Positions 22,610 to 41,771 of a stretch of DNA of 51,795 nucleotides are shown here, piece after piece. The stretch comes from Hyphomicrobiaceae bacterium (lineage in GTDB: Bacteria > Pseudomonadota > Alphaproteobacteria > Rhizobiales > Hyphomicrobiaceae), in the NCBI GenBank assembly GCA_050186055.1, contig JBFWYV010000001.1:1-51795 (forward strand), read 5' to 3'. Under the pieces are notes generated by a model. It was not told where the DNA came from and did no database searches. It saw only the letters and a program-made list of their open reading frames with translations. How positions within the stretch are numbered: position 1 is the first letter of the stretch; each line of letters begins with the position of its first letter. Both the position numbers and the translations under genes were made by a program.

Positions 22610-24022
22610 CTATGCTTCTTCCAGCCGGAAACCTCCACGTTCACCGGAACGAAAATGCCAGATGGCAAATCCGATCGATAAACATAAACTGAAAAGCAAA
22701 CCCGTCGGGGCATCGAAGATAACGTTGTCTACCAAAAAGGTTGCAGCGAAACACGCGAGCATTAGGTGTATTGCAAGAAAACAAGATTGGTACTGAATTT
22801 CTTGGTTCTTAAAAAATTGACGGAGGGATAGCAGACCGATTGATGCCAAGGGAATCACAAGACAAAAGAGACCCAGAAGCCCAGCCTGCAAGAAAACAAA
22901 CCAGAAGTCACCATGCGCATGAATATAATGACGTTCCGGCAGCTTTCCGAAAAGCAGATTGACAACTCTCGGTTCCTCCAGAACCTTCTTAACTTTCTCC
23001 AGATCCAAAAGCCGGGTGGTTATAGAATCCGAGTGAAAGGCACAGCTTTCCGGGTATCCTACAACTTTCGATCCGCAAACTAGATCAGCAACCAGTGTAT
23101 TATGAATGGTATCTCCAAATGGAGCAGGAAAAAGCGCAATTTGCCCGGCACAACTCGCAAGTACAAGCACACCGATTAGCGCAACCCAGCCGCGATTGAA
23201 TCCCACAAGCAATACGAAATACGCTAACAGCCCGAAAGAAATCAAAACTTGGCTAAGCGATCCCGTCCGAATCGTAGCTATATTCAAAAAGATAGCGATT
23301 AGACTTAAGGCGACTCTGGTTCCAGTACTTTTCACGAACCACAGGAGCGCGAGAGAAATTGCCAAAGCCAAATTGAGGGCAAACCCGAATCTGTTTGGAT
23401 TAAGCAAGAACCCGGTAAATGGCACGTAACCAACGTAAGGATCGTCGCTCCATAGTGCCAAACTGGGCATCACTTCCGATAAGAATACGCTGAAAGCAAC
23501 CTGAAAGAAAACGCTACCCATGAAGATAATAGCACATGTCCGGAGTAAAGATGTCAAATCCCGATCGCGTTGGGCTAAAATGAGAAAACACAGCCACGAC
23601 GGCAGAAGAAAAGATTTCGCCATCTGGTAGGCTAACGGAAGCGTAGAAGAGGATGAAGCCAGAATTGCTGCTATGAGTATCCAAAGAAAATATAATAATG
23701 CCACCAACTGCACATCCAGGCGGTTCAGGAAGAGTTTTCGGATTGATGACAAATCCGACCTGAAAGTAAAGTATAATAGAAATGTCAAGAACGATCCAAC
23801 AATTACGATTTCATCGCTCGCCCTAACAATAAACGGAGCATAAGACGTTCCTTTCGAAAATGGAAAAATATAGTATAAAGCGGTTATATTCAATGCCACA
23901 AATAGATTGACTGTTACGGCAATCTTTATAATGGCACCCCAACTAAGATGGTCAAGCTTGGTGCTGATCAATTTACAGTTCCTTCCCGGCGCAATTTTTT
24001 CGCTAAGCTTACGCAGGAACAA
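22610..24022 (-). CDS. Low-GC polytopic membrane protein, Wzy_C-type (O-antigen polymerase Wzy, or ligase/O-oligosaccharyltransferase-like)
   Basis: At least 10 hydrophobic segments. The late loop reads ERHYIHAHGDFWFVFLQAGLLGLF, reminiscent of the Wzy_C H..H motif. Sampled lines are about 35-53% GC, against about 65% in the flanks. Confidence 0.6.
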   Translation of the reverse strand: MFLRKLSEKIAPGRNCKLISTKLDHLSWGAIIKIAVTVNLFVALNITALYYIFPFSKGTSYAPFIVRASDEIVIVGSFLTFLLYFTFRSDLSSIRKLFLNRLDVQLVALLYFLWILIAAILASSSSTLPLAYQMAKSFLLPSWLCFLILAQRDRDLTSLLRTCAIIFMGSVFFQVAFSVFLSEVMPSLALWSDDPYVGYVPFTGFLLNPNRFGFALNLALAISLALLWFVKSTGTRVALSLIAIFLNIATIRTGSLSQVLISFGLLAYFVLLVGFNRGWVALIGVLVLASCAGQIALFPAPFGDTIHNTLVADLVCGSKVVGYPESCAFHSDSITTRLLDLEKVKKVLEEPRVVNLLFGKLPERHYIHAHGDFWFVFLQAGLLGLFCLVIPLASIGLLSLRQFFKNQEIQYQSCFLAIHLMLACFAATFLVDNVIFDAPTGLLFSLCLSIGFAIWHFRSGERGGFRLEEA

Positions 24023-26777: not shown

Positions 26778-28292
26778 TCAGCCTTTCCCTGCTACCTCGA
26801 TTGCACGCTTGAGAACGGCACGATCCTGTCCGCCCAACACTACCAAGTAGCAGCCCAACCAGGCCAGTACACAGCACCCAGCCATCACGGCGCCCAGTCC
26901 GAGGAGGTTGAACGGTGCAAATGCTGCTTGGATTACCGCGGCCCAACCGGCGACAGCCAGCAGAACAACAGCATGCCGACCGACCTGCGACCAGAAAAGT
27001 GATGGCGGCAGGCCCCAGGTTTTCAGCATGTTGTTGGCCAATATTGGCGCAAACACGGTCATCGATACCGCCTGCCCGATAATGAATGCACGTTCACTGA
27101 ACCAGGCGAAAAAAGCAAACGTCAACAAGTATTGCAGCACGGCCTGCAACATCAGCAGCCGGGTCGTCAGGCGCATGAAATCCGAGCGGACATAGAGTGC
27201 GACTTGCCCTGGCCCGATCAGGACGCCGACGGCTGGCACGACCATCATCAGCGCCAGCCAGGGCCAGTACGCCGCAAAAGTCGGCCCCACCCAGAGGCTT
27301 AGAATGTCCTTCGAGAACATCGCCACGACGCCCAGAGCCGGCAGCGCCATCGCGGCGGGAAGCACGAAGCCGCCGCGCCCCAGCATATGCTGCCGGACGG
27401 TGTCGGACGTCTCGTCGATCCGCGCACTCGTAGGCAGGATCGCCGAACTGATGAGCCCCAGCGTCGACTTCAGAAATCTGGGAAGGCGCGTCAGGATGTC
27501 GTAGATGCCCACTGGTCCGGCCCCAAGCAGCGCGCCGATGGCCATCGGTGGCAACTGCTGCTGGAGAATCCCAACGACGCGGTTATTGAACATGAGCCCG
27601 CTGCGCAGAGCGACATCGGCGCGGCTTTCCTCTCCCCATTTCTGCAGCCGCAGTGGCGAGCCTCGCGCGAGGCGCGATGCCACCAGCCCAAGCAAGATGC
27701 ATCGCACGGCGGTGACGATGAGGAAGGCGTACGCGATCCACTGGTATGGCATCTGCCAGGCGGCTATCAGCAGCACCGCAGCGACATAGCTGAATGATCC
27801 CGCAATCTCGACGAGCCGCAGCCAGCCGTAACGCTCGAAGCCCTTGAGGAGTCCCTCCGCGATAAGTCCGGGAAAGGCAACCAGCAGCACAGCGGCGGTT
27901 GCTCTGGTCATGCCGATGAAGGCTGCCTGTTGATCGTCAGCGACCCTGAACAACTGCGCTAGCCAGAATGCGGCGCTCCACAGCAGGATAGCCGACGCGA
28001 TGCCGATGACGACCGACCCGATCAGTAGCAGCGTCACGCGCTCGCCGGCTGCGACCCAGTTGCCGCCTCCACGTGCCCGCGCAACCGATTGTGTCGTCGT
28101 ATCGGCGACGCCGAAGTCGATCAGCGCCAGGAAGCCGGTCGGCAACAGATTGCGCACCAGCACGATCATGCCAAGCGCGGCAAAGCCATAGCTGCGGGCA
28201 ATGACAGCGACGGCGATCAGGCCGAGAACCCCCGCGATCCCGAATGCGACCGCAGAAATCATGGTGTTCTGCACAAGCCGCCGCAGCATCAA
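26778..28292 (-). CDS. wzx: Oligosaccharide flippase (Wzx; MOP/polysaccharide biosynthesis protein family)
   Basis: 504 aa and about 12-14 TM. It has N-terminal NTMISAVAFGIAGVLGLIAVAVIARSYG and the mid-protein VGIYDILTRLPRFL motif typical of the family. Confidence 0.75.
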   Translation of the reverse strand: MMLRRLVQNTMISAVAFGIAGVLGLIAVAVIARSYGFAALGMIVLVRNLLPTGFLALIDFGVADTTTQSVARARGGGNWVAAGERVTLLLIGSVVIGIASAILLWSAAFWLAQLFRVADDQQAAFIGMTRATAAVLLVAFPGLIAEGLLKGFERYGWLRLVEIAGSFSYVAAVLLIAAWQMPYQWIAYAFLIVTAVRCILLGLVASRLARGSPLRLQKWGEESRADVALRSGLMFNNRVVGILQQQLPPMAIGALLGAGPVGIYDILTRLPRFLKSTLGLISSAILPTSARIDETSDTVRQHMLGRGGFVLPAAMALPALGVVAMFSKDILSLWVGPTFAAYWPWLALMMVVPAVGVLIGPGQVALYVRSDFMRLTTRLLMLQAVLQYLLTFAFFAWFSERAFIIGQAVSMTVFAPILANNMLKTWGLPPSLFWSQVGRHAVVLLAVAGWAAVIQAAFAPFNLLGLGAVMAGCCVLAWLGCYLVVLGGQDRAVLKRAIEVAGKG

Positions 28293-29695
28293 CTCGCCTC
28301 GACCAGCTCGACCGAGGAGCCTCCCAGCATTCGAGACGCGCGGCCGTACGTTTCGGTTGCGGGTCGCGCAATCCAGCGGCGGTCTGCAGATGCGACGGCC
28401 TGAATGCGGTTTAGTATGTCCTCCACCAATTCAATTGGGAACGCTTTGCCGATCCGCCGGCGTTCTATGCTCCGATTCGCATAAATTCGCCGAACCATCC
28501 CGCTGGTCCGATAGCCGAGCGTCGTTCGCGTCAGATGCGCGAAGCGTCCTCGGATGGAAGGTGACTCCGAAGCCACTATTGCAGCAGCACTCAGCGAAGC
28601 GGAGCGTATTGTGTGCAAAATGGCATCGGCAATTCGCTTTGTCGCAGCGCCATCGATAGCAAAATAAAGCTCTCTGAACACTTTCTTGCGAAACTCAAGC
28701 ACCTGGAATGGCGCGGGTGGAAGCCGATTTTCCAGTGCTTCTCCGAGCATGCGAATCAAGTCATCTTCACCGTTCGCTATCCGGCTGACGCCTGTTGCCG
28801 CATCCAGTCGCAAGGCCGGCGTGTTGAACCATTCCAGGGCGATGGCCTCAACGCCAAGCATCGCTGCCTCGACAGCCGTCGAGCAGTTCTGATGCAAGAG
28901 CAGACGAGATGAGGCGATCCATTCAAGAGACGTTCCCTCTTGGCGGACCTCGACGTTGGGAAGTCTCGCCAGCTCGTCATAGGCAGCGATACGCTCGAAA
29001 GGGTGTGGGCGGAGGACAAAGCGCACGCTCGGAAAAAGCTTAGCGAGTTGAATTGCAACGGCCGTGAGGGTGCGGTGCGCCTCGCCTGCATCATGAATGA
29101 ACTGAAGCGCGAAAGTCTCTGAGAAGCCAGCTTTCACCATGGACGCGATTTCATGCTTCGGGCCGGAAGAAAAGCGTGGGTTGACCGTCGGGAAATTGGT
29201 GTTGATGAGTACGTAGCCGGGGCGGACCCCCGGTACGGGGAGCGCGCTGCGCCAAGGCGCTGCGCAGAAATCGTATCGCGGGCAGCCTGTTACATGCAGC
29301 CGATTTTGCGGCACGGTTCCTTTCTGAATAAAGGCCCGATATTGCGATTCACCCCAAACGCAATACAGGTCCACGAGACGACCGCAGTTGGCACTGGCCA
29401 CCATCTCCGCGAAATGTTCAGAGCTCTTTCCCGCTATGCCTTCGGTGTCAAGAACGCCGACCAGAATGCCGGCATTCTTATATGTCTTGATGAGGTCTGA
29501 ATTGTTGGCGCGTGTATAATTGACGAGGACGAGGTCTGGCTTCAATGCTGGAACGTCAAAGCCCTGGTCGTACATCGGGACGAGCCAGCTCCGAGCCCCC
29601 GCGCAAGCAAGCTGCCACGCAAGAAGCACGAGGCCTTCAAGGTCCCGGAGCGGATTGTCGACGATAAGACAAACCCGCGGTGCTTTCTCGAGCAT
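28289..29695 (-). CDS. Surface-carbohydrate biosynthesis protein; candidate CMP-nonulosonate (pseudaminyl) transferase
   Basis: A soluble protein of about 468 aa with two Rossmann-like halves (RVCLIVDNPLRDLEG..; VLRPHP..LLLHQNCSTAVEAAMLG). It sits directly downstream of pseI and overlaps wzx by 4 nt. From memory it resembles the uncharacterised family that accompanies Pse/Leg clusters. ATG 29695 avoids overlap with pseI. Confidence 0.5.
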   Translation of the reverse strand: MLEKAPRVCLIVDNPLRDLEGLVLLAWQLACAGARSWLVPMYDQGFDVPALKPDLVLVNYTRANNSDLIKTYKNAGILVGVLDTEGIAGKSSEHFAEMVASANCGRLVDLYCVWGESQYRAFIQKGTVPQNRLHVTGCPRYDFCAAPWRSALPVPGVRPGYVLINTNFPTVNPRFSSGPKHEIASMVKAGFSETFALQFIHDAGEAHRTLTAVAIQLAKLFPSVRFVLRPHPFERIAAYDELARLPNVEVRQEGTSLEWIASSRLLLHQNCSTAVEAAMLGVEAIALEWFNTPALRLDAATGVSRIANGEDDLIRMLGEALENRLPPAPFQVLEFRKKVFRELYFAIDGAATKRIADAILHTIRSASLSAAAIVASESPSIRGRFAHLTRTTLGYRTSGMVRRIYANRSIERRRIGKAFPIELVEDILNRIQAVASADRRWIARPATETYGRASRMLGGSSVELVEAS

Positions 29696-29715
29696 TTTGG
29701 GAATCTGCCCTGAGT

Positions 29716-30789
29716 TCAATTCTCGCCGTCCTGTGCAGAAAGCAGGTCCCAGCTCATGGGAGTACCTCGGGGTACGGAACAACGGACTTGCTTTCCCAGT
29801 AGCATTTGCCGGTATTTGGGTGCCAGCCCCATACCGGGACGGATGGCCCGCAGGTTGGTTTCAGCCAGAACATCGCCAGGCCGCAAGTCTTCGACGATGT
29901 AGAGCGACCGGCGAAACATAAGCGAATTTTTTTCTTTCGTTGTTTGCCCATAATAAATTCGACCCAGAGCCTGCCATGCGCGCTCGCTTTCGATCACGAG
30001 TGACGCCATTTCTTCGGGTTCCATCGAGAATGTACTGTCCACTCCGCCATCAGCACGACGGAGAGTGAAGTGCTTTTCGATAACGGTCGCCCCCAGCGCC
30101 ACGCTGGCGATAGCCGCGCCAATTCCGAAAGTGTGATCGGAAAGGCCGACCTCGCATCCGAACAACTCGCGCAAGTGCGGAATGGTCAGCAAGTTGCTAT
30201 CCTGAGGCGAAGCTGGATACGTGCTTGTGCACTTGAGCAGCACGAGACTGCGGCACCCAGCCTCACGCGCTGTGCGCACAGTCTCGTCGAGTTCGGCAAT
30301 GGTAGCCATTCCAGTTGATATGATCACGGGCTTATCCGTGGCAGCGACCTTTCGGATTAAATCGAGGTCGGTATTCTCGAACGATGCTATTTTGTATGCA
30401 GGCACATCGAGCGTTTCCAGGAAATCAACCGCGGTGGCATCAAACGGTGTAGAAAAAGGGATCATCCCAAGCTCTCTAGCGTGATCAAAGATCGGCTTGT
30501 GCCAATCCCACGGCGTATAAGCTTGTTGGTAGAGATTGTGCAGGGAACTGCCTTTCCACAAGCTCTGCGGATCATCAATGAAAAATTCGCCGTCTTCACG
30601 ATCGATAGTCATCGTGTCTGCGGTGTACGTCTGCAGCTTCAGAGCGTGTGCACCCGACTTGGCCGCTGCCTCGACGATTGTCATCGCCCGATCGAGCGAT
30701 TGATTGTGATTGCCGGACATCTCCGCGATGATGAACGGCGGACTGTCTTTCCCCACCGTCCGTCCAGCAATTTCGAATACCATCGGCAT
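29716..30789 (-). CDS. pseI: Pseudaminic acid synthase (NeuB family + SAF domain)
   Basis: PFIIAEMSGNHNQSLDRA, KLQTYTADT, YKIASFENTDL, VIISTGMAT, GLSDHT, and a C-terminal SAF domain (RRSLYIVEDLRPGDVL..NLRAIRPG). Confidence 0.85.
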   Translation of the reverse strand: MPMVFEIAGRTVGKDSPPFIIAEMSGNHNQSLDRAMTIVEAAAKSGAHALKLQTYTADTMTIDREDGEFFIDDPQSLWKGSSLHNLYQQAYTPWDWHKPIFDHARELGMIPFSTPFDATAVDFLETLDVPAYKIASFENTDLDLIRKVAATDKPVIISTGMATIAELDETVRTAREAGCRSLVLLKCTSTYPASPQDSNLLTIPHLRELFGCEVGLSDHTFGIGAAIASVALGATVIEKHFTLRRADGGVDSTFSMEPEEMASLVIESERAWQALGRIYYGQTTKEKNSLMFRRSLYIVEDLRPGDVLAETNLRAIRPGMGLAPKYRQMLLGKQVRCSVPRGTPMSWDLLSAQDGEN

Positions 30790-30990
30790 CGTCTCGTCTC
30801 ACTTGTCAAACGGGTGCGGGTCTGGTCGTCTATGTACGACAACCCATCATACAACTGACTTTCTCGGGCCGGCAGGGAATGGCTGGCGGCAACATGCGCC
30901 TGCATGAGATGTAACGGGTCCCTTGGCATGTTGACGAGACATCAAGCAGCTCGCTGGCTCCCCACTCTATCGCGAGATGTAGCTGGTCTC

Positions 30991-31635
30991 CTATGTCTCT
31001 CGCAACTTGTCCAATTGGATTGTGTATATTTTCCCCTTTAGCTCAAAAAAAGCAGGAAACCGGTCTGGATCGCAAACGCGCAGAAGATTGAATTGCGTCG
31101 CTATGGATTGGTAGGGGTCAATACGAGAGTCTTCGGGAGTTCTCCGTCGATAATAGGTAGGCACGCGATCGTCTTGGGGTTTGGGTTCCAGAGTCCCGAA
31201 ACTCGTGACCGCCAGCATCATCAGTTCGATACTGATACTGAAAAGCTTGTCGTTGATCTCGTCGTAAAGCTCGTGCCCCTCCAACTGAAAACGGCGTTTC
31301 GCCCAAATCGGCCCGGCGTCGACGGAATCGGCCGCCTCCAGCAAGGATACGACGATTTCGTTGCGCCCTTCGAGGACCTGCCAGACATGAGGCGACCATC
31401 CGCGGCCTTCGGGCAGATCGCTGGAGTGAACGACCAGCGTTGCGCGGTACCGAGCCCGATCGTGACGGCCGATTATTTCATGGCATGAGATCAGAAAGAG
31501 TATATCTCCACCGGCAAGATCGACCTTGCGCTCCACAAGCTGCACCTGATGCGATGAGTCGAGTTGAGCGATCCAGCGCTCGAGCCATGGATAGATGGGA
31601 TGAGAGCTGCTGGAGCAAAGCACTGATATCCGCAT
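30991..31635 (-). CDS. Formyltransferase-fold protein (Fmt/PurN N-domain-like) in the PseH position
   Basis: TLVVHSSDLPEGRGWSPHVWQVLEG resembles the HxSLLPxxRG site, and DSVDAGPI supplies the conserved Asp. The canonical Asn two residues before the His is Val here. Confidence 0.65.
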   Translation of the reverse strand: MRISVLCSSSSHPIYPWLERWIAQLDSSHQVQLVERKVDLAGGDILFLISCHEIIGRHDRARYRATLVVHSSDLPEGRGWSPHVWQVLEGRNEIVVSLLEAADSVDAGPIWAKRRFQLEGHELYDEINDKLFSISIELMMLAVTSFGTLEPKPQDDRVPTYYRRRTPEDSRIDPYQSIATQFNLLRVCDPDRFPAFFELKGKIYTIQLDKLRET

Positions 31636-31658
31636 ATTCAGTTAGCTCCGCACTGTTT

Positions 31659-32876
31659 TCAAACCGCCCCATTCAGCGCACGTTCGCTTTCCATAAGCGC
31701 AGCCCGAACGCGCTGGCAGCCTTTGCCATCGACAATACGCATCGCTGCAGCCGACATAGTCTGGACTTGACGACGGTCAGCCAGCAAGTGCTGCAAGGCG
31801 GACAGATAGTCTTCTGACACGACTTCGTTGAATTCACCCAAATAGCGAATGGCGCCCACGCGATCAAGTTGCTGGAGAGCGCCGAACTGGTTATCCGCAA
31901 TTGCCACAGCCACTGTTGGTAAGCCGAGACAGCAGCGCTCCCAAGATGCTGTACCGCCGCTACCCACGGCGAGGTCGGCAATTGCCATCAGCGAAGCCAT
32001 ATCTGTTGTCTGGTGATGGACGCACACCCGTTGCATCGACGCGGCCTGGCGTCGGATCAAATCGACATGGGGGCAGGCGCCGCCCATTACCACATCGACA
32101 GCGAGGTCGCAGTCCTCAAGATCGGCTAGGGCGCTGAGCACCTTACCCGTCTCATTCATTGGGTCACCGCCGCCCATGAACACGAATATGCGCCGTATCT
32201 CCCCGTCGCGTTCCCGAAGATGACTCCGGGCTGCAACAAACTGTGGTCTCAGCAGGGCATGCGCGGGGCCGAGCAGGGTTTTGCAGGAGGACGGAACCAA
32301 CGCGTCATACCGTTCTTCAAGTCCTTCCACGAGGTTTTGGTCTAATAGGAAGTCGCAATCGTGCCGGCGGTCGGCGAGGTCATCGATGGCAAGCAACCGG
32401 CTCGCATATGGCCGCAACCAACTTTCCCATTGGTTGTCCAGCGCGTAATGATCCACAATCAACCAATCAACCGGCCCCCGGCGCCGCAGCAACGCCGCTG
32501 TGTCCCGAGCATCGACGGACCAGTGGACAGGAAGCCAATGCGCGTGCGGGATGCGCACCTCTCCTGCGATATTACCGGCATCTTCAGATCTTGAGGCGAG
32601 CAGCAACTCGATCGCATGGCCGTTGGCCCGCACCATATCCGCGAGTTGATTTGCCATGGTCCGTGCAACGAACGTAACGCTGGCGCCAGACTCGGCGAGC
32701 TCATTGGCGAGCGTAACGCACCGCATGAGATGGCCTGTGCCGATTTCCGTCGATGCATCGACGCGAATCGCAACGCCAATCATCGCACGCGGGCCTTTCG
32801 AAAAGGCATTGGCCTCGATTTCATGCAGATACCCAGTGCACTGGCTCTCGTGTTGCGCGCTCTCCGTTTGAACCAT
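31659..32876 (-). CDS. pseG: UDP-2,4-diacetamido-2,4,6-trideoxy-beta-L-altropyranose hydrolase
   Basis: IRVDASTEIGTGHLMRCVTLANEL is a PseG-type N-terminus. The GT-B-like C-half reads IADLAVGSGGTASWERCCLGLP. An alternative start at 32783 (MIGVAIRVD) removes a 31-aa extension. No GNAT domain is fused. Confidence 0.8.
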   Translation of the reverse strand: MVQTESAQHESQCTGYLHEIEANAFSKGPRAMIGVAIRVDASTEIGTGHLMRCVTLANELAESGASVTFVARTMANQLADMVRANGHAIELLLASRSEDAGNIAGEVRIPHAHWLPVHWSVDARDTAALLRRRGPVDWLIVDHYALDNQWESWLRPYASRLLAIDDLADRRHDCDFLLDQNLVEGLEERYDALVPSSCKTLLGPAHALLRPQFVAARSHLRERDGEIRRIFVFMGGGDPMNETGKVLSALADLEDCDLAVDVVMGGACPHVDLIRRQAASMQRVCVHHQTTDMASLMAIADLAVGSGGTASWERCCLGLPTVAVAIADNQFGALQQLDRVGAIRYLGEFNEVVSEDYLSALQHLLADRRQVQTMSAAAMRIVDGKGCQRVRAALMESERALNGAV

Positions 32877-32903
32877 GCGGACAATGACGGGTGGATCGCG
32901 TTG

Positions 32904-33617
32904 CTAATCGGGGGGGCGACCCGGTGATTTAGTGCCTCGCCAGGCTATATACATGAGTTCCGCGCGCTCCCAATCCTCGATTGTATCGATATCTTGCACC
33001 ATATGCCGCGGAATAACGACGCCTGCTGAGTGGGGCGCGAATAATGGCCGGTTTTCAACGAACGCCTCTGCAGTACCCCAATAAAATTGACCGGCATCGT
33101 GATACAAGGTCTCCAGGTCCTGAGAGCGTGTCGTCATGTGATGCGGCTCGGTGGGCTCAATGCCGCCACTTGCAAGTAGGCGCACGGCCCTCTGGATGGG
33201 AAATGGAAAGCTCGTAATGGAGAACGCAAACGTTTTCTCCCTTTCCATGAGTATGCGGAGGCCCTCCCGAAGGTAGCTGGCGTCAAGCATTGGCGCCGTC
33301 GCATAGATGCAGCACGTATGATCGATGCTGTATCCACGATCACGATACCAGAGAACTGCGTGGGCAACCACCGCATTGGTACCCGTGAAATCGTCTGCGA
33401 GGTTGGACGGGCGAACAAAGGGCACTTCGGCCCCATGACTTCGCGCGGCTTCTGCAATTTCGTCATCATCGGTAGAGACGATAACGTGATCAAACAAATT
33501 GGCCTCGATCGCTGCGGCAATGGAATAGGCAATGATTGGGCGGCCGCAAAATAAACGAATGTTCTTTTTGTGGATCCGTTTTGAGCCGCCGCGGGCCGGG
33601 ATGACCGCAATTCTCAT
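32904..33617 (-). CDS. pseF: Pseudaminic acid cytidylyltransferase
   Basis: IAVIPARGGSKRIHKKNI, and the later DIDTIEDWERAE. It overlaps pseC by 4 nt. Confidence 0.85.
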   Translation of the reverse strand: MRIAVIPARGGSKRIHKKNIRLFCGRPIIAYSIAAAIEANLFDHVIVSTDDDEIAEAARSHGAEVPFVRPSNLADDFTGTNAVVAHAVLWYRDRGYSIDHTCCIYATAPMLDASYLREGLRILMEREKTFAFSITSFPFPIQRAVRLLASGGIEPTEPHHMTTRSQDLETLYHDAGQFYWGTAEAFVENRPLFAPHSAGVVIPRHMVQDIDTIEDWERAELMYIAWRGTKSPGRPPD

Positions 33618-34774
33618 TGAATTGCCTTCTTTAAGACATCGACGACCATATCCAGTTCATCGTCCGTCATCCGTGGGAACAGTGGAAGCGTGATTGCTTC
33701 GTCATAATAGCGCTCCGCTTGAGGAAACATGCCGGCTGTGAACCCCAGCCTCCGATACCACGGCTGCATATGCACGGGTATGTAGTGCACGTTGACGCCT
33801 ATTCCGCCGGCACGCATCGCCTCGAACACGTGTAGCCGGGACTTTCCGATCGCTTCGAGATCCAGTCGCACAACGTAGAGATGCCAGGCTGAGTTGGTAT
33901 CGGGATGCTGCCAAGGTGTGCGCAATGGCAATTGGCCAAGGCGTTGATTATAGCGTCCAGCCAGTTCGCGCCGCCTCGCGACGAATGCATCGAGGCGATT
34001 AAGCTGGCTGAGGCCCAGCGCCGCTTGCATCTCATTCATTCTATAGTTGAAGCCGAGGTCAATCTGTTCATAGTACCACGGACCGTGACTTTCGAATTCC
34101 ATTTCGCGCGCATCGCGCGTGACGCCGTGCGAGCGAAATAGATTGAGCCGTTCGTATATAGCGCGGTCGTTTGTGAGGGCGACGCCGCCCTCGCCAGTAG
34201 TAATGATCTTAACAGGGTGAAAACTGAATACGGTAATATCGGCTTCGCGACATGAGCCGATTGGTGCTCCTAAATACTCGCCTCCGATAGCATGCGAGGC
34301 ATCCTGCAGAATGCGAAAGCCGTATTCATTCGCCAGCGCCCGGATGCGATGCATATCCGCAGATTGACCAGCAAAATCCACAGGGACAACCACCTTTGGA
34401 AGCGCTGCTCTTCTTGCTCGTGCGGATGCAAGCTTTGCCTCGAGTGCATCCGCGCACATGCAGTAAGTTTGAGGATCGATGTCGACGAAATCGACTTGCG
34501 CTCCAACATAAAGTGCACAATTAGCCGACGCAACAAACGTATTGGGTGTGGTCCAAAGCAGATCTCCCGGGCCCAATTCAAGAGACAAGCAGGCAATATG
34601 CAACGCCGCCGTCGCATTGGAGACGGCCACAGCCCAGTTGGCCGCGCAGCGCTTTGCAATCGCTTCCTCGAATTGAGGAATGGTCGGACCGCTGGTCAAC
34701 CAGTCCGAATTGAGAACGCTCTTGACCGCCTCAATATCATCCAGGTTCGTATCTTGACGCCCGTATGGGATCAT
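33614..34774 (-). CDS. pseC: UDP-4-amino-4,6-dideoxy-N-acetyl-beta-L-altrosamine transaminase (DegT/DnrJ/EryC1 family)
   Basis: MIPYGRQ N-terminus. The PLP-Lys motif is FSFHPVKIITTGEGG. It overlaps pseB by 4 nt. Confidence 0.85.
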   Translation of the reverse strand: MIPYGRQDTNLDDIEAVKSVLNSDWLTSGPTIPQFEEAIAKRCAANWAVAVSNATAALHIACLSLELGPGDLLWTTPNTFVASANCALYVGAQVDFVDIDPQTYCMCADALEAKLASARARRAALPKVVVPVDFAGQSADMHRIRALANEYGFRILQDASHAIGGEYLGAPIGSCREADITVFSFHPVKIITTGEGGVALTNDRAIYERLNLFRSHGVTRDAREMEFESHGPWYYEQIDLGFNYRMNEMQAALGLSQLNRLDAFVARRRELAGRYNQRLGQLPLRTPWQHPDTNSAWHLYVVRLDLEAIGKSRLHVFEAMRAGGIGVNVHYIPVHMQPWYRRLGFTAGMFPQAERYYDEAITLPLFPRMTDDELDMVVDVLKKAIQ

Positions 34775-35778
34775 TGAAGTGCAATCCTGTTGAACTCACG
34801 GATTTCCGGTATGCTGAGAAAATGCGGATTTGAACCCGAATCATAACCAAAGCCCTGCTCGACGACACTACCGGTTTCGCCCAACCCATTGCGCGAATAA
34901 TCTACATCGACGTGATGAAAACGGATCGTCGGCTTTATTACAAAATGATCGGGAAATCGCAAAGTGAGGTGCGAATCATCTGGAGGGCACATGACCTCAT
35001 GAAGTTTTTCGCCGGGACGAATGCCGATTACTTTCTGTCTGATATTCGGAGCCATGGCGGTGGCCAGCTCATTGATGCGAACAGATGGAATCACAGGCAC
35101 GAACAACTCTCCGCCGTGCATGCGTTCAAAGGACTTCATCACGAATTCAACGCCCTGCTGAAGCGAGATCCAGAAACGTGTCATGCGAGTATCCGTGATG
35201 GGTAGGTGATCGGTGCGTTGGCGTATTAGGCTCTCGAAAAGCGGAACTACGGAGCCGCGAGAACCAACGACATTACCGTAGCGAACGACGGAAAAGCGAG
35301 TTCTGTGGCCCCCCGCCATGTTGTTGGCAGCTATGAACAATTTGTCTGAAGCCAGCTTCGTCGCACCGTATAAATTGATCGGTTGCGCCGCCTTGTCTGT
35401 TGAAAGTGCAATCACCTTGTCCACATTCGATTGAAGCGAGGCACGGATTACATTTTCAGCGCCATGGATGTTGGTCTTGATGCACTCCATGGGATTATAT
35501 TCGGCAGCCGGAACTTGTTTCAGCGCTGCTGCATGAACGACGAGGTCGATGCCCCTCATTGCCGTCGTCAGGCGATCAGCATCTCGCACGTCGCCGATGA
35601 AAAAGCGCATCGAAGACGCATCGAACAATCGCTGCATCTCATATTGTTTAAGTTCATCTCGCGAATAGACGACAACGCGACGTGGCCGGTATTTATCGAG
35701 TAGCGTGCGAACGAATTTTCGCCCGAAAGAGCCTGTGCCGCCAGTAATAAGGATATTTCTATCGTCGAACATTTTCAT
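34771..35778 (-). CDS. pseB: UDP-N-acetylglucosamine 4,6-dehydratase (inverting)
   Basis: ILITGGTGSFGRKF, VVYSRDELKQ, YGATKLASDKL (YxxxK). ATG 35778 (MKMFDDRN) is chosen because the 35898 start overlaps the upstream SDR gene. Confidence 0.9.
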   Translation of the reverse strand: MKMFDDRNILITGGTGSFGRKFVRTLLDKYRPRRVVVYSRDELKQYEMQRLFDASSMRFFIGDVRDADRLTTAMRGIDLVVHAAALKQVPAAEYNPMECIKTNIHGAENVIRASLQSNVDKVIALSTDKAAQPINLYGATKLASDKLFIAANNMAGGHRTRFSVVRYGNVVGSRGSVVPLFESLIRQRTDHLPITDTRMTRFWISLQQGVEFVMKSFERMHGGELFVPVIPSVRINELATAMAPNIRQKVIGIRPGEKLHEVMCPPDDSHLTLRFPDHFVIKPTIRFHHVDVDYSRNGLGETGSVVEQGFGYDSGSNPHFLSIPEIREFNRIALQ

Positions 35779-35828
35779 CTCATCTGTAAGCGTTTGGCAA
35801 AAACGCAAACCTTCATTGGCGGTAGCTA

Positions 35829-36671
35829 CTACCACACACTGCGGCCGCCATCCATCACGATGTTCTGGCCGGTCATGTAGCTCGACGCGTCCGAGCACAG
35901 GAACTGGACAATCGATCTGTACTCGTCCTTGTGCGCCATCCGGCCCATCGGGATCAGTCGGTGCAGCCGCTCCGTGAAGGCGTCAGGCTGACCGTTGAAC
36001 ACGCCGCCCGGAGACAGCGCATTGACGCGCACGCCCTTGTCGGCCCAGTAGGTCGCAAGATACTTCGTCAGGCCCACAAGCCCATGCTTGATGACCGAGT
36101 AGGTGACGGGCTTCACCGGCTGTTCGGCTTCGGCAGTCACGTTGTCCTGCCGGTAAAGTCGCTGGTCGGGCGCGATCACGCCGAGGTCCGACGCAATATT
36201 GAGAATCACGCCGTCGCCGCGCTCGGCCATGGCGGCCCCGAACACCTGCGCGCATAGCATGGCGCCGGTCAGGCCGACCGCGATCTCCAGGTTCCACTGA
36301 TCGAGGGCAAACCCCTCGAAGCGGGAGGCATGCATCAGGCCGGCGGCCGATGTGACCTTCGGATCGATGGCGGCATTGTTGACCAGGATGCCGACCCCGC
36401 GCCCGTCGCGCGTGAGCCGCTCGTTAAGGGCCGCAATCGATGCGGCCTGACAGACATCGAGCGCTGCCGCCATGCAGGTGGCCTTGGGCACGATTTCCTT
36501 CACGAACACGGCGGCATCGGCAGCGCTCGCCTCGTTGAGATCGCTCAGCACCACAAAAGCGCCGGTCTCGGCCAGCGCTGCCGCATGCTGACGGCCGAGT
36601 AGCCCGCCCGCACCCGTGATCAAGGCCGTGCGCCCTGTGAGATCGTAAGGCTTGGGAAGAATGGGCCTCAT
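35829..36671 (-). CDS. SDR-family oxidoreductase (classical SDR, 1 of 3)
   Basis: ALITGAGGLLG (TGxxxGxG), NNAA, YSVIKHG (YxxxK). The start at 36671 or 36677 avoids overlap with the upstream gene. Confidence 0.8.
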   Translation of the reverse strand: MRPILPKPYDLTGRTALITGAGGLLGRQHAAALAETGAFVVLSDLNEASAADAAVFVKEIVPKATCMAAALDVCQAASIAALNERLTRDGRGVGILVNNAAIDPKVTSAAGLMHASRFEGFALDQWNLEIAVGLTGAMLCAQVFGAAMAERGDGVILNIASDLGVIAPDQRLYRQDNVTAEAEQPVKPVTYSVIKHGLVGLTKYLATYWADKGVRVNALSPGGVFNGQPDAFTERLHRLIPMGRMAHKDEYRSIVQFLCSDASSYMTGQNIVMDGGRSVW

Positions 36672-36699
36672 GCACATATCTCTCCGGATCGTTGTCACA

Positions 36700-37461
36700 T
36701 CATGCGCGGAGCTGACCACCGTCCGCAACCATCACCGTGCCGGTGATGAAAGCGGCGCGCGGCGAAGCGAGGAATGCAACTGCGTCCGCCACTTCTTCGG
36801 GCATGCCCAGCCGCGCAAGCGCCACCTCTCGTGTCAGCATGTCCTCGACGCTGTCGCGGTTCTCGGCCAGCTTGTGTGCCCAGGTTCCGCCTTCGAACAG
36901 GATATTGCCGGGCGCCACGGCATTGATCCGTATACCATCTCGAGCCAGTGGCCTGGCAAGACCTCGTACCGTCGCATTGAGCGCTGCCTTGGCCGCGGAG
37001 TAGGTTACCGGTGCGCCAAGTGCGGCGAGGCCGCAGATTGAGGAGACCGCAACGATCGACCGGTCGCCCTCGCCGTTGCGCATCAAGGGGCGCGCGGCAG
37101 AAATCGTGCCGGTGGTCGCAAACAGGTTGAGGTCCATTACCCGTCGCCACTCGGCGTCCGTCTCGTTGCCGGGCGGCACCGAGGCGCCGCTGCCGACGTT
37201 GCACACCAGGATATCGAGACGTCCCCAGCGTGCACCAACGTCGTCGATGAGCCAGTGCGTCTCGGCATCGTTTTGTACGTCTGCTTTGTGAATCGATACG
37301 TCAGCCGCAATGGAGGCCTTGGCTCGCTCCAGCCCTTCTCCGTCGCGGGCGTTGAGCGCGACCTTGCAGCCCTCGCGCGCCAGCGCCGACGCAATGGCAA
37401 GGCCGATCCCCCGACTTGCCCCGGTCACGAGTGCGACTTTGCTGGCAAGGCCGAGATCCAT
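36700..37461 (-). CDS. SDR-family oxidoreductase (FabG-like, 2 of 3)
   Basis: ALVTGASRGIGLAIA, YSAAKAAL, and the C-terminal ITGTVMVADGG. Its ATG directly abuts the upstream stop (TGAATG). Confidence 0.8.
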   Translation of the reverse strand: MDLGLASKVALVTGASRGIGLAIASALAREGCKVALNARDGEGLERAKASIAADVSIHKADVQNDAETHWLIDDVGARWGRLDILVCNVGSGASVPPGNETDAEWRRVMDLNLFATTGTISAARPLMRNGEGDRSIVAVSSICGLAALGAPVTYSAAKAALNATVRGLARPLARDGIRINAVAPGNILFEGGTWAHKLAENRDSVEDMLTREVALARLGMPEEVADAVAFLASPRAAFITGTVMVADGGQLRA

Positions 37462-38334
37462 TCAGGCACCCGCCGCGATCCAGCCCAGCACCATGTCCTG
37501 GTAGCGCGCGAGGGCACCGGCGTGATCGCCGTCGGCCGCACGCGCCGTTTGCAGCACGTAGTTGCCGGCATAGCCGTTCTGCTCAAGCAGCCGGATGGCG
37601 CGGCCAATCTCTGCCGCTCCGGTCCCAAGCGGCACGGTTGTTCCGCCGCGCACGCGGTCTTTCACATGCACATGCGCGATCCGATCGGCGTAGGCCACGA
37701 TCTCTTCGCCGCAATCGTAGCCGAGCGCCGCACTGTTTCCGATGTCGTAGTTGATGGCGTACGCCTCGGCCGGCAGCCGTTCGATGAAGTGCCTCAGCGT
37801 GTCGGGCGCGTAGTCGGATTCGAACGCCACCAGGACACCGCGCCGGCGTAGATCCGCGGTCCGCTCTGCCAGGACGTCGACGAGCACGGCCTCCTGAGCC
37901 GCAGTCTCCAGCGATCCGTTGTCGACCAGCGGCACCACGACGGTGCCAACGCCTAGCGCTGCAGCAGCGTCGATCACGGTGTCGAACTCGGCAATCAAAG
38001 CATCCCGCTCGGACCCCGCTACTTTCCAGAACGGTGCCTGCATGAACAGGTCGCCGGTCAGTGCAGCGACGCTGATGCTGTTTTGTGCAGCGAGCGCGCG
38101 GATCTCCTGCCGGCCGCCGTCCGTCATGATTGGGTTCTCGGACAGGTGGTCGTGGTCGAGCGTCCATTCGATCAGCTTGAGCCCAAGCCGGGCCGCGCCC
38201 GGAAATTCAGCCTCCCAATCATCCCACGGGAACGCCTGGATCTTGCCGTCGACCAGCGGTGACAGCCGCCCTTGCATGAAGCCGAGGCGCTCCGCCGTAG
38301 GTCGCTTCGCGCGCGTTGAAGTGTTGGCGGTCAC
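37462..38334 (-). CDS. Sugar phosphate isomerase/epimerase (xylose-isomerase-like TIM barrel)
   Basis: LGFMQGRLSP..GLKLIEWTL..VVVPLVD..LVAFESD..NYDIGNSA..HVHVKD is the typical AP_endonuc_2/IolE-like pattern. The proposed GTG start at 38334 forms a GTGA overlap with the upstream stop. The Met of MQGRL is an alternative, and the 38454 start overlaps the upstream gene by about 120 nt. Confidence 0.7.
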   Translation of the reverse strand: MTANTSTRAKRPTAERLGFMQGRLSPLVDGKIQAFPWDDWEAEFPGAARLGLKLIEWTLDHDHLSENPIMTDGGRQEIRALAAQNSISVAALTGDLFMQAPFWKVAGSERDALIAEFDTVIDAAAALGVGTVVVPLVDNGSLETAAQEAVLVDVLAERTADLRRRGVLVAFESDYAPDTLRHFIERLPAEAYAINYDIGNSAALGYDCGEEIVAYADRIAHVHVKDRVRGGTTVPLGTGAAEIGRAIRLLEQNGYAGNYVLQTARAADGDHAGALARYQDMVLGWIAAGA

Positions 38335-39101
38335 GTCACCAGCCCCTTTGCCGTCCAGCCGCCATCGATTATGATCTCCTGGCCGGTCATGTAGGCCGAG
38401 GCATCGGACGCCAGAAACAGCGCCGCCCCGACGAGATCGTCCGGCTCGCCCCACCGATCGAGAATGGTTTGCCGCCGCCGCTGTGCATTGAGCGCCGGGT
38501 CGCGATAGCTCGCATCCGTCATCGCCGTATGCACGTAGCCCGGCGCCAGAGCATTGACCCGAATCCCGTCGGCGGCAAGATCGACCGCAAGCGCGCGCGT
38601 CAGGCCCGTCAGGCCCGCTTTCGCCGCCACGTACCCTGGATTGCCGGGAAAGCCGCGGCTCGAATTGATGCTGGTGACGTTGACGATAGACCCGCGGCCG
38701 GACGCCTTCAGGAGGCGTCGCGCCGCGAGTACTGTCGCATAGACTGAGACCAGATCGGCCTCCAGTGTCGTTCGGAACCGCTCGATCTCCTCGGACGGCG
38801 AGCCGTTGCTCGGTCCCAATGAGATGCCGGCCGCGTTGATCAGAACATTGAGTTGCCCCGCATCCGCGCCGATCGTCGAAAAAGCAGCCTCGACTGCAGC
38901 AGGATTGGAAACATCGCAGGAAAAGGCTTGCACGCCTTCAGAGCCGGTGCCGCTGCGGCTGAGCCCATAGACCCGCGCGCCTGCCGTGGCTAGCCCGGCA
39001 GCGATCACCGCACCGATCCCGCGCGATGCGCCGGTGACTGCGGCGGTACGGCCGGCCAGCCCGAACCGCTTGGCGAGGGCGTCAGCCGGTGCGTCAGGCA
39101 T
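38331..39101 (-). CDS. SDR-family oxidoreductase (3 of 3)
   Basis: AAVTGASRGIGAVIA, NAAG, YVAAKAGL, MTGQEIIIDGG. Confidence 0.8.
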   Translation of the reverse strand: MPDAPADALAKRFGLAGRTAAVTGASRGIGAVIAAGLATAGARVYGLSRSGTGSEGVQAFSCDVSNPAAVEAAFSTIGADAGQLNVLINAAGISLGPSNGSPSEEIERFRTTLEADLVSVYATVLAARRLLKASGRGSIVNVTSINSSRGFPGNPGYVAAKAGLTGLTRALAVDLAADGIRVNALAPGYVHTAMTDASYRDPALNAQRRRQTILDRWGEPDDLVGAALFLASDASAYMTGQEIIIDGGWTAKGLVT

Positions 39102-39816
39102 AGCCGTAGCCCCGCATGATGACCTCGCACAGCTTGATGTCTTCGATCCTGTCGATCTGGAACATCTTGTGGCGTTCCATCAGGTAGAACCCGATCCGAC
39201 CGCCCAGCCGATTGTTGTTCTCGCGCAGCAGGCTTGGAGGGAAGACATAGAAGGAGCCGTTCTCCAGAAAACGGCGCTCGATCTCCTGCCGTCGCCGGCG
39301 CGTGCGATAATCATAGTTGACCGCCTCGGCTTGCCCGTCCTTGTCGAGCCGCCAGTTGAAGAAATCCTCCACCTCGCACACCGACAGCAAGCTGTCGTAT
39401 CCTTCGCGCTCATAGAGTTCGAGCGCGTCCGAAAGGTCGTTGGGCCCGCGGACCGGCGACGTCGCCTGCAGCGCCACGATCCGCGTGAACGGACCTTCTG
39501 TTGCCTCCACGCTGTCGAGCGCATGCCGCCACGCCGACTCGGAGGTCGCCGTGTCGCTGGAGATCGCGTCGGGACGTTTGATGCCGATGGCGCCATGGGC
39601 GCAGGCGACATCGAGGATCTCATCGCTGTCGGAGGAAAGCACTACGACGTCGATGCCCTTGGCATCGCGCGCCTGTTCGACGGTCCATGCAATCAGCGGC
39701 TTGCCGCAGATCTCGAGAAGGTTCTTGCGCGGTATGCCTTTCGAACCGCCTCGCGCGGCGATCACCGCCAGCGTGCGCTGCGGACCGGCGTCGCGCCGGC
39801 GAACTTGCGCCGTCAC
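39094..39816 (-). CDS. Acylneuraminate/ulosonate cytidylyltransferase family (NeuA/KdsB-like), second copy in the locus
   Basis: LAVIAARGGSKGIPRKNLLEICGKPLIAW, LQATSPVR. The GTG start forms a GTGA overlap with the upstream synthase stop. Confidence 0.8.
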   Translation of the reverse strand: MTAQVRRRDAGPQRTLAVIAARGGSKGIPRKNLLEICGKPLIAWTVEQARDAKGIDVVVLSSDSDEILDVACAHGAIGIKRPDAISSDTATSESAWRHALDSVEATEGPFTRIVALQATSPVRGPNDLSDALELYEREGYDSLLSVCEVEDFFNWRLDKDGQAEAVNYDYRTRRRRQEIERRFLENGSFYVFPPSLLRENNNRLGGRIGFYLMERHKMFQIDRIEDIKLCEVIMRGYGYA

Positions 39817-41771
39817 AGCCTGCCCTCCAGCCGCGCCAGTGCGGTCCAGAAGCCTTCGCCCATGTTCTTGTGCCCCTGCCAGATCTCGGGGATGAAGGAT
39901 GCGCCCGGAGCATGCTCGGCCAAGGTCTTGCCGAGCGCATCGAAATCAATCTCGCCGTCCTCGATTTGCAGACCCTCGCCGTCCAGCCCCTTGGCATCGC
40001 CCAGATGAAGATGCGCTGTATGCGGACCAAGCGCCGCGAGCCCTTCCAGAAAATCGAAGCCGAAATGATTGGATGCAAGCCGGGTATGCGAGATGTCGAC
40101 ACACATCCTCAATCCGGTTCTGGCACAGAATGCCGCCGACTCCTCGGGGAAGATGAAGATGTTCTGATGTCGTTGCCCGCCGAAGTGCCATGGGAACGGC
40201 GCCATCGTCTGCGGGATCAGCTCGACGCCCGTCATGTCGAGTTCGCCGAGGCTCATCTCGAAAATGTCGTAGCGCCGCGCTTTCTCGTCGGCGGGCAGCG
40301 GCGCGTCGCGCGTGAAGCCGCCTACATTGGCGACGATCATCGGCCGCTCCGTACGCGGGAAGAAACGCTTCAATCCGCGCGTGATGTCGATCACGCGCTG
40401 CGTCTCTTTGATCGAGATCTGCCGTTCCTCTTCGTCTGGCGTCGCCATATCCATCAGCCGGCTGCCGGCGAACAGCTCAGGTGCATGGACGACGAAACCG
40501 ATTTCGTAGGTCCCTTTGAGATAGTCGGCCGGGTCGCGGTCCATGTCCTGGTAGCTCAGGTGGAACTCGATCAGATCCGGCCGGCAGATCTTCAGAAAAC
40601 GCTCCGTATCGTGATAGCGCACCGGCACCCCCCACGGGCGGCTGAACGTATAGGCGCGCGCCTTGTCGCCGCCCGCCTCCAGGTCGGAGGCAAAGAAGTA
40701 GTCGTCCTTGCGCATCGCCCGTGTCAGGGTGCGGCCGACCAGCCGCGGCATCGCCAGCGGCGACACGCCCTGGCCCGGGCTGCGCACTGCGATGTCGCCT
40801 TCGCCAATCACGGCACCGGCTTCAAGGTCACGAGCCGCCACGAGGCTCTTGGCCAGGTTCTCGCGGTTGATGAGTTCGCCCTGGCTCAGTCTGCGCTCGC
40901 CCGCATTGCTCTCGGCTGCGCCATCTCCCATCGCCGCTTCGATTTCGCGAATGCCGCTGACCAGCGTCGAGAACTCGGCCGGCTCCAGGCTCGCGGCGTG
41001 ATCCGGTCCCTCCATGGTCCTGTCGAGCGTGATGTGACGTTCGATGATCGATGCGCCGAGCGCGACTGCGGCCTGCGATACGGCGACCCCGCGCTCATGC
41101 CCCGAATAGCCGACGGGCATGTGCACCTGCGCAAGCTGCCGCATGAAGCGGAGGTTGATATTGTGGAATGCGGCCGGATACGTGCTCTGGCAATGCAGCA
41201 GCGCATACGCGGCGCCGCGCTTGTCCAGATAGTCCGTAACCGTCGTGATTTCTCCGATCGTGCTCATGCCGGTCGACAGGATCATCGGCTTTCCCGTCGC
41301 CGCGATCACTGTGAGCAACGGCAGGTTCGTCAGATCGGCCGACGCCACCTTGAAGGCGGCAACGCCGAACCCGTCGAGCACCGCCACGCTCGCCGGGTCC
41401 CATGGCGTGCAGAGATAGGTGATGCCGGCTTGTTCGCAATAGGCCGCGAGGCGTTGGTGATCCGCGGTCCTGAGCTCGAATCTGCGCAGCAGATCGAGCG
41501 TGTATTCGACGGCAAGATCATCCTCGCGGCCTTCCAGCGTCGCGGCCCGATAGACCTGATCCAAATGCCGCATCTGGAACTTGGCGCAGTCGGCGCCCGC
41601 CGCGATCGCAGCATCCACCAGCGCGATCGCCCGGTCGAAGTCGCCGTTGTGATTGTTGCCGATCTCGGCGATCACGTAGCAGGGATGGCCAGGACCGACG
41701 GTACGCGGACCGATTTTCAGCTCGGCACGGCCTTTGTCCGCCCGCGAGCCGTTGGCATTGCCGTCCATCAT
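39813..41771 (-). CDS. Fusion protein: NeuB-family PEP-condensing ulosonic acid synthase + SAF domain + C-terminal xylose-isomerase-like TIM barrel
   Basis: N-half: CYVIAEIGNNHNGDFDRA, KFQMRHL, FKVASADLTNL, ILSTGMST, GYSGHERG, IERHITLD, and SAF (AKSLVAARDLEAGAVIGEGDIAVRSPG). C-half (about aa 385-652): IEFHLSY..VVHAPE..IVANVGG..ISHTRL..HLHLGD, typical of AP_endonuc_2/sugar-P isomerase barrels. Confidence 0.75.
   Translation of the reverse strand: MMDGNANGSRADKGRAELKIGPRTVGPGHPCYVIAEIGNNHNGDFDRAIALVDAAIAAGADCAKFQMRHLDQVYRAATLEGREDDLAVEYTLDLLRRFELRTADHQRLAAYCEQAGITYLCTPWDPASVAVLDGFGVAAFKVASADLTNLPLLTVIAATGKPMILSTGMSTIGEITTVTDYLDKRGAAYALLHCQSTYPAAFHNINLRFMRQLAQVHMPVGYSGHERGVAVSQAAVALGASIIERHITLDRTMEGPDHAASLEPAEFSTLVSGIREIEAAMGDGAAESNAGERRLSQGELINRENLAKSLVAARDLEAGAVIGEGDIAVRSPGQGVSPLAMPRLVGRTLTRAMRKDDYFFASDLEAGGDKARAYTFSRPWGVPVRYHDTERFLKICRPDLIEFHLSYQDMDRDPADYLKGTYEIGFVVHAPELFAGSRLMDMATPDEEERQISIKETQRVIDITRGLKRFFPRTERPMIVANVGGFTRDAPLPADEKARRYDIFEMSLGELDMTGVELIPQTMAPFPWHFGGQRHQNIFIFPEESAAFCARTGLRMCVDISHTRLASNHFGFDFLEGLAALGPHTAHLHLGDAKGLDGEGLQIEDGEIDFDALGKTLAEHAPGASFIPEIWQGHKNMGEGFWTALARLEGRL

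Follow-up and report, generated by a model that had tools for sequence, protein, structure and literature searches.

A formyltransferase-fold protein in the pseH slot of a pseudaminic acid operon, a candidate N-acyltransferase

Which enzyme N-acylates the amino sugar made by PseC in a pseudaminic acid (Pse) operon that has no pseH? The question is raised by a 51,795-nucleotide stretch of contig JBFWYV010000001.1 (assembly GCA_050186055.1) from a Hyphomicrobiaceae bacterium, hereafter the window, in which six co-directional genes on the minus strand (29716–35778) are arranged in the order pseB-pseC-pseF-pseG-fmtA-pseI. The fifth gene (30991–31635) encodes a 214-aa protein of the formyltransferase fold, here called FmtA. 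In canonical operons of the order B-C-F-G-H-I, e.g. psaA-F of Acinetobacter, pseH occupies this slot. On sequence grounds, we estimate a probability of about 55% that FmtA performs a PseH-equivalent N-acylation in this operon. The point is of some consequence: flagella, capsules and O-antigens all carry pseudaminic acids, and it is the N-acyl groups of these sugars that set antigenicity and phage/host recognition.

PseB, PseC, PseF, PseG and PseI were scored against the curated cutoffs of the corresponding NCBIfam equivalogs, and all five, already recognised in an earlier note on this DNA, were above them. No GNAT, hexapeptide (LbH) acyltransferase or PIG-L deacetylase was found by Pfam and NCBIfam scans among the approximately 50 open reading frames (ORFs) of the window, and six-frame searches of the window with PseH-like, GNATx (a GNAT type described below), LbH and PIG-L profiles gave no match; no member of the PseH family TIGR03585 was detected in the window. 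The absence of PseH holds for 51.8 kb of a metagenomic contig, the scope of these searches. Pfam detected neither a fused GNAT nor a fused Fmt domain in PseG. The earlier note, which had found no GNAT in the locus and none fused to PseG, was correct on both counts.

The 214-aa protein contains VVHSSDLPEGRGWSP and DSVDAGPI, the two motifs pointed out in the earlier note; its match to Pfam Formyl_trans_N (PF00551) is marginal (28.0 bits against a gathering threshold of 26.1). Its top PDB sequence match is the N-domain of ArnA (E = 1.8e-11), and in the ArnA alignment Val68, His70 and Asp106 fall on Asn102, His104 and Asp140, respectively. The canonical Asn-x-His...Asp triad is hence incomplete, with Val at the Asn position (L-V-V-H70, the replacement that had been read from the sequence earlier) and with His and Asp kept (D106-A-G). 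Scores against the NCBIfam formyltransferase equivalogs were far under the cutoffs (ArnA, 52.4 against 777; fmt, 52.5 against 201.5), and those against the remaining named equivalogs, PRK06988 (55.7 against 316) and PRK07579 (23.8 against 238), were likewise under cutoff. The AlphaFold2 model (pLDDT 97.4) confirms the formyltransferase fold: the best Foldseek match was 1ZGH, with a TM-score of 0.84/0.80 over the full length, and all the matches (1ZGH, ArnA-N, the FDH hydrolase domain, HypX, Rv3404c, WbkC and VioF) were folate-dependent formyl-transfer proteins, with E-values against formyltransferase structures down to ~1e-16.

The FmtA-type clade in Pse loci

A word-index search returned 1892 relatives of FmtA, the closest being a Bradyrhizobium protein with 67% identity, and an exhaustive search gave 4767 representatives at E≤1e-3, 315 of them at E≤1e-30; FmtA relatives are encoded in 352 species-representative genomes. 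For this group we coined the name FmtA-type clade, defined by the motif [VIL]-x-H-x-S-x-L-P-x-G-[RK]-G-[WFM]-S-P ... D-x-G, a length of ~215 aa with a C-terminal subdomain, and a gene adjoining or fused to pseG. The window protein has all these features and keeps every invariant residue. At the Asn position, 120 close homologues have Val (116), Ile (2) or Leu (2), with H70, D106 and P-x-G-R-G-W-S-P invariant, and across 153 aligned domains the counts are 138 Val, 8 Ile and 4 Leu, with H70 kept in 151 and D106 in all 153; the loop S-x-L-P-x-G-R/K-G-W-S-P is invariant or nearly so in the clade. With His70, Asp106 and the loop kept clade-wide, the pattern is that of active enzymes whose catalytic centre has changed and not of decay. 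Called divergent in the earlier note, the gene is no isolated case: it belongs to a large and conserved clade whose members as a rule carry a hydrophobic residue in place of the Asn. These genes currently carry labels such as 'formyltransferase family protein', 'methionyl-tRNA formyltransferase' and 'UDP-glucuronic acid dehydrogenase'.

Eighty loci were fetched around FmtA relatives, 61 of them ≥12 kb. In nearly all 80, the FmtA gene immediately follows pseG and precedes pseI, and the uninterrupted order of the window, B-C-F-G-FmtA-I, recurs in 23 loci, which include those of Pseudomonas, Psychrobacter, Achromobacter, Devosia, Methylobacterium, Chromobacterium, Geomobilimonas, Psychromonas, Oceanospirillum and a member of the Pontiellaceae. 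Cultured carriers of this compact operon are Pseudomonas viridiflava, Psychrobacter immobilis, Chromobacterium fluminis and Devosia aquimaris, and complete genomes with it are those of Pseudomonas sp. P3C3 (CP184361.1) and Psychrobacter sp. DM4 (NZ_CP195536.1); Bradyrhizobium centrosematis (LMG 29515; NZ_CP120703.1) has its pse genes split. The best 150 representatives include 62 PseG-FmtA fusions, whose PseG halves score above the TIGR03590 cutoff, and one PseI-FmtA fusion. The clade is dedicated to Pse loci. Within the 61 loci ≥12 kb, a true PseH was present once, and PIG-L or a second formyltransferase never; in 41 of them, no GNAT or LbH was detected within 10 kb at the sensitivity used.

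That FmtA is a catalytically dead partner of PseG, serving structure or substrate channelling, would agree with the loss of the canonical Asn and with the frequent physical fusion of the two proteins. We consider this highly improbable, as more than 150 diverged sequences show His70, Asp106 and the cofactor-loop motif unchanged, unlike in a pseudoenzyme, and as FmtA also occurs in fusions with PseI, a cytidylyltransferase and further formyltransferase domains.

The free amines of the loci were compared with their acyltransferases by a balance rule, in which aminotransferases plus PIG-L deacetylases equal N-acyltransferase domains, FmtA being counted among the latter. Most loci examined balance only if FmtA is so counted: the window and L088 at 1 = 1, L094 with three aminotransferases against GNAT, FmtA and GNAT, and L004, L089 and L093 if a pseC outside the retrieved stretch is included. 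A second acyltransferase domain, present in L004, L089, L092 and L093, is always accompanied by PIG-L, and the PIG-L genes of L092 and L093 were predicted ahead of inspection and both found. The window and 36 related loci encode no aminotransferase besides PseC and no deacetylase, so that FmtA has no other free amine there; in the window, PseC is thus predicted to make the only free amine, with FmtA as the only candidate to acylate it.

A RimL-type GNAT with the motif IGNIKYEP, here termed GNATx, was found in 19 of the 80 loci (e.g. L069 11692–14521, L015 11699–12268, L081, L087, L039 and L045). It either accompanies a Gfo/Idh oxidoreductase plus a DegT aminotransferase, or immediately follows pseI in loci that additionally encode a HemL-like aminotransferase and a second NeuB; it has the look of a module that adds another acetamido group. 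A second aminotransferase occurs in 15 of 15 GNATx loci and in 10 of 46 others (Fisher p = 5e-8, a value that overstates independence because the loci are phylogenetically related). GNATx was rejected as a hidden PseH, since it scores 37.6 bits against the PseH cutoff of 93.1 and in every case has a second aminotransferase in its locus.

Several observations weigh against FmtA as the enzyme of the PseH step: i) locus L030 encodes an FmtA-PseH fusion, the C-terminal half of which scores 117.2 bits, above the PseH cutoff of 93.1, ii) two PseG-x-FmtA fusions (P0193 and P0206) contain an intact GNAT, iii) a 427-aa protein (P0196; L092 4841–6124) joins FmtA to a canonical N-x-H formyltransferase domain, reading N-I-H, that resembles LgrA-F and PseJ, the published Pse formyltransferase discussed below, iv) the balance fails in the P0211 locus, in L090 with an ATP-grasp, and in L030, where the contig ends, and v) by alignment, the clade lacks the Asn of the catalytic N-x-H...D triad. 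Given the first three, FmtA cannot everywhere be the only enzyme or the one specific for N7. In addition, the PseH step is redundant or promiscuous in Caulobacter (PMC7591256), and an unlinked pseH is conceivable in this organism given the Bradyrhizobium-type loci, whose pse genes are scattered, with pseBCF elsewhere.

Much of this would fit an alternative in which an unlinked or promiscuous GNAT supplies PseH activity in trans and makes normal Pse5Ac7Ac, FmtA being an accessory that modifies, e.g., another amine or part of the pool. The PseH domain of L030, the intact PseG-GNAT-FmtA fusions, the stand-alone GNAT adjoining the PseG-relic-FmtA fusion of the P0211 locus, the scattered Bradyrhizobium genes and the Caulobacter redundancy are all in its favour. 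However, an accessory FmtA would find no other free amine in the window and the 36 related loci, 41 of the 61 longer loci offer no alternative acyltransferase within 10 kb, and additional GNATs occur where there are additional aminotransferases or PIG-L. We therefore regard PseH in trans as unlikely, with perhaps half the weight given to FmtA itself. The proposal of the earlier note, that the Fmt-like protein stands in for PseH, is backed by position, PseG fusions and the balance of amines and acyltransferases, but not as a general rule, since FmtA is elsewhere joined to PseH, GNAT or a PseJ-like formyltransferase.

Some related loci show further arrangements. Approximately half of the PseG-FmtA fusions (P0162–P0270; L089 and L090) have an insert of 80–170 aa between the two domains, and these inserts grade from intact GNAT through truncated GNAT-core matches to sequences with no recognisable similarity; 3 of 28 were recognised as GNAT by Pfam, and about 10 more gave partial matches to a GNAT profile. 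The inserts may be a PseH domain decaying after the arrival of FmtA, a series weakened by the stand-alone GNAT in the P0211 locus, the one locus of the relic type in which a GNAT was seen. P0196 is encoded in a flagellar Pse locus, which also contains genes for WbqC, PIG-L and a Maf-type (MptE-like) protein. Other FmtA fusions (P0130, P0228 and P0229) involve a pyruvate-dehydrogenase E1-alpha-like (TPP) domain, a cytidylyltransferase and, as PseG-FmtA-ATP-grasp, an ATP-grasp domain; the E1-alpha fusion is odd for an enzyme expected to take a folate donor. The closest relative of the window protein is encoded in a B. diazoefficiens-type locus (L004 10001–12007) with the order PseG-FmtA-FmtB-PIG-L-PseI, in which pseB, pseC and pseF are absent within 10 kb. 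FmtB of this locus is 1ZGH-like and reads A-F-H, likewise without Asn. The gene content suggests that this lineage makes a Pse with two non-acetyl N-substituents.

The reaction proposed for FmtA

In the reaction that best explains these data, FmtA would N-acylate the 4-amino group of UDP-4-amino-4,6-dideoxy-beta-L-AltNAc from PseC, in place of PseH; PseG would then remove UDP, PseI condense the sugar with phosphoenolpyruvate, and PseF activate it with CMP. With formyl from N10-formyl-tetrahydrofolate, the product would be CMP-Pse5Ac7Fo, a compound 14 Da lighter than CMP-Pse5Ac7Ac. His70 and Asp106 would have the roles known from other formyltransferases, whereas catalysis, and perhaps the choice of donor, would depart in detail from that of textbook enzymes, as Val68 stands in place of the oxyanion-stabilising Asn. 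From what is observed here, namely family membership, motif, fold, gene position, fusions and co-occurrence, we infer the PseC product amine as the acceptor, and more weakly the acyl group.

Formyl is the economical reading, since the structural neighbours handle formyl-folate, the folate-type motifs H-x-S-x-L-P-x-G-R-G and D-x-G-x-I are retained in FmtA, and PseJ provides a precedent; we give formyl a little less than an even chance. As cited in PMC11040635, PseJ of Anoxybacillus kamchatkensis (PDB 6CI2/6CI4; Reimer et al. 2018, ACS Chem Biol) was published in 2018 as a formyltransferase that replaces PseH and yields Pse5Ac7Fo. A formylated product could be processed further, as PseF converts Pse5Ac7Fo as efficiently as Pse5Ac7Ac (PMC11040635). 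Formyl was also detected by mass spectrometry (MS) on nonulosonic acids of Ca. Kuenenia, the cluster of which has a deacetylase and a formyltransferase (bioRxiv 10.64898/2026.04.20.719630).

FmtA might instead take the PseH step but move an acyl group other than formyl (e.g. acetyl), or use a donor other than N10-formyl-tetrahydrofolate. Such a difference could be reflected in the hydrophobic residue at the Asn position, which is found clade-wide and shared with 1ZGH (V-V-F-H) and FmtB, and P0196, in joining FmtA to a canonical N-x-H PseJ-like domain, suggests that the two domains are not equivalent. To our knowledge, moreover, reports of 7-N-formyl Pse are far rarer than FmtA-type operons appear to be. 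On the other hand, the folate-type motifs are kept and every structural neighbour uses formyl-folate, and we know of no precedent for acetyl transfer by a formyltransferase fold. Together with the formyl seen on the Ca. Kuenenia sugars, these points make the alternative improbable, though less so than a dead FmtA; transfer of a different acyl group as such, e.g. acetyl, possibly from a non-CoA donor, is if anything slightly less probable still.

A rhizobial route was also considered, in which the Fmt-like RkpP of the rkp-3 region would give 3-hydroxybutyryl-Pse. Literature support for this idea was not found, and S. fredii NGR234 uses a GNAT, Rkp3_013, for the PseH step. The matches on Sinorhizobium pSymB are Fmt-like genes with ~28% identity, encoding 312 aa, in an unrelated polysaccharide locus. 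Two short-chain dehydrogenase/reductase (SDR) genes upstream of the operon (35829–37461), considered as suppliers of 3-hydroxybutyryl, were set aside because they are part of a high-GC neighbouring cluster with no link to the Pse operon. Among the FmtA matches carrying an organism name, none was from a strain with a solved glycan structure; in the genus Psychrobacter, glycans of P. arcticus contain Pse5Ac7Ac and those of P. marincola Pse5Lac7Ac.

If FmtA takes the PseH step, many Pse operons in Proteobacteria and beyond would make an N7 variant of Pse, probably 7-N-formyl, which is not predicted by current annotation. Should the acyl group be other than formyl, a very widespread class of Pse operons would form ordinary or new N7-acyl Pse with no GNAT involved, which would be new chemistry for the formyltransferase fold. 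The clade would also offer a natural test of a formyltransferase working without the conserved Asn.

Layout and surroundings of the operon

The first gene, pseB (34771–35778), encodes the inverting UDP-GlcNAc 4,6-dehydratase (TIGR03589, 528.9 bits against a cutoff of 407.75; also Polysacc_synt_2) and probably starts at the ATG at 35778, since the family model aligns from residue 3. It is followed by pseC (33614–34774; TIGR03588, 547.3 against 423.5 bits), the product of which is the sole aminotransferase of the operon, and by pseF for CMP-pseudaminic acid synthetase (32904–33617; TIGR03584, 328.4 against 205.7 bits). Both 4-nt overlaps reported earlier, pseB/pseC at 34771–34774 and pseC/pseF at 33614–33617, are real ATGA junctions. 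The UDP-sugar hydrolase gene pseG (31659–32876; TIGR03590, 292.5 against 153.55 bits) is a 405-aa ORF matching at residues 35–336; as the family model matches nothing before residue 35, translation may in fact start at Met32 (~32783). The last gene, pseI (29716–30789; TIGR03586, 489 against 340.25 bits), encodes pseudaminic acid synthase with 75% identity to PseI of L004.

Between fmtA and pseI lies a non-coding spacer of 201 bp (30790–30990), which the earlier note had pointed out correctly. It is atypical: in 66 of 71 related loci, the two genes overlap or are no more than 30 bp apart. The suggestion that it holds an internal promoter found no support: no promoter-like or terminator-like match falls in the gap, and the whole region has 3 such matches where 4.0 ± 2.0 are expected, i.e. 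no excess. At the nucleotide level the gap resembles none of the other loci, and its operon-strand frames hold no long ORF; it was for these reasons rejected as a remnant of FmtB/PIG-L. Since it sits where L004 carries FmtB and PIG-L, it may nevertheless mark an indel.

Downstream of pseI, a gene for a 'surface carbohydrate biosynthesis protein' (28289–29782, minus strand; TIGR04396, 324 bits against a cutoff of 125) has 60% identity to its L004 homologue and probably starts near 29695, past the pseI stop, since similarity to relatives begins at residue 35. The next gene on the same strand (26778–28292) encodes a candidate Wzx-type flippase with ~11 hydrophobic segments in a hydropathy scan and 48% identity over 496 aa to an L004 gene with Polysacc_synt Pfam matches. 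The TIGR04396 gene also follows pseI in seven Bradyrhizobium-type loci (L008–L014; order PseG-FmtA-PseI-T4396), six of which continue with Wzx, the contig of L013 ending there.

The GC content of the Pse segment (0.53–0.59) is lower than that of the flanks (~0.65), and the segment therefore looks like an acquired island within a larger surface-polysaccharide region, which is bounded by ATP-synthase F0 genes on one side and by Smr/MltA/Tim44/SecB on the other. The nearest relatives of the Pse-locus proteins are from Bradyrhizobium, and the window sequence matches landfill-metagenome contigs. Runs X12, X15, X17 and X20, which we guess to be RNA, gave short contigs of low depth, identical or nearly identical to parts of 28200–36800, that cover pseI, the pseG/FmtA junction, pseG, pseF, pseC and pseB and are uninformative for the gap; they are weak evidence that the Pse operon is transcribed.

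A second, high-GC gene set of the ulosonic-acid type is located at 35829–43275 and 15827–18587. It encodes a 652-aa NeuB-family synthase fused to a xylose-isomerase-like TIM barrel (39813–41771; NeuB_NnaB 328 bits, under cutoff), a second cytidylyltransferase (39094–39816), three SDRs and another TIM-barrel protein, along with GDP-heptose proteins: GmhA (17023–17604), an HddC+GmhB fusion (15827–17053) and an HddA-like kinase with CBS domains (41902–43275). A NeuB-type synthase beside heptose genes would point, speculatively, to a higher-carbon (C10) ulosonic acid. Finally, a 470-aa ORF (22610–24022) in a sharp GC trough (0.44) has ~11 hydrophobic segments and no family match was found for it, a profile typical of a Wzy-like polymerase or another serotype-specific membrane protein. 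It adjoins the gene for a KpsS-like Capsule_synth protein (20920–22479), with 60% identity to its B. diazoefficiens-type counterpart.

Comparison with known systems

FmtA shares with PseH (GNAT; TIGR03585) the operon slot between pseG and pseI and, as proposed here, the acceptor amine, but PseH has an unrelated fold and uses acetyl-CoA as donor. The sugar N-formyltransferases ArnA-N, VioF, WbkC, Rv3404c, FdtF and WlaRD have the same fold as FmtA, nucleotide-sugar amines as acceptors, the His/Asp pair and an SLLP-type folate loop; the window protein differs from them in having Val for Asn and equivalog scores far under the cutoffs. The best full-length structural match, 1ZGH, an uncharacterised 'methionyl-tRNA formyltransferase' of Clostridium thermocellum, also has Val at the Asn position, and the related FmtB proteins adjoin PIG-L deacetylases in Pse loci. 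However, identity between 1ZGH and FmtA is only ~20%, and 1ZGH is a member of another family, Formyl_trans_C_2, for which pairing with a deacetylase is usual.

The closest functional parallel is PseJ, which, as described in the paper citing it (PMC11040635), is likewise a formyltransferase-fold protein encoded in a Pse cluster, and takes the PseH step on UDP-4-amino-4,6-dideoxy-L-AltNAc, leading to 7-formamido Pse. The window protein resembles it in lying in a Pse cluster without pseH, at a site fitting action between PseC and PseG, but this is functional analogy and not membership of one family: the two proteins show no significant similarity (6CI2; E = 0.82, 12.7 bits). PseJ groups with canonical PurN/LgrA-F-type domains, and a canonical N-x-H domain matches it at 1.4e-7, whereas FmtA has an extra C-terminal subdomain and V-x-H for N-x-H. 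Judged by these sequence features, FmtA represents a large and widespread lineage distinct from PseJ, with a changed catalytic motif and fusions to PseG, and is new with respect to the published PseJ.

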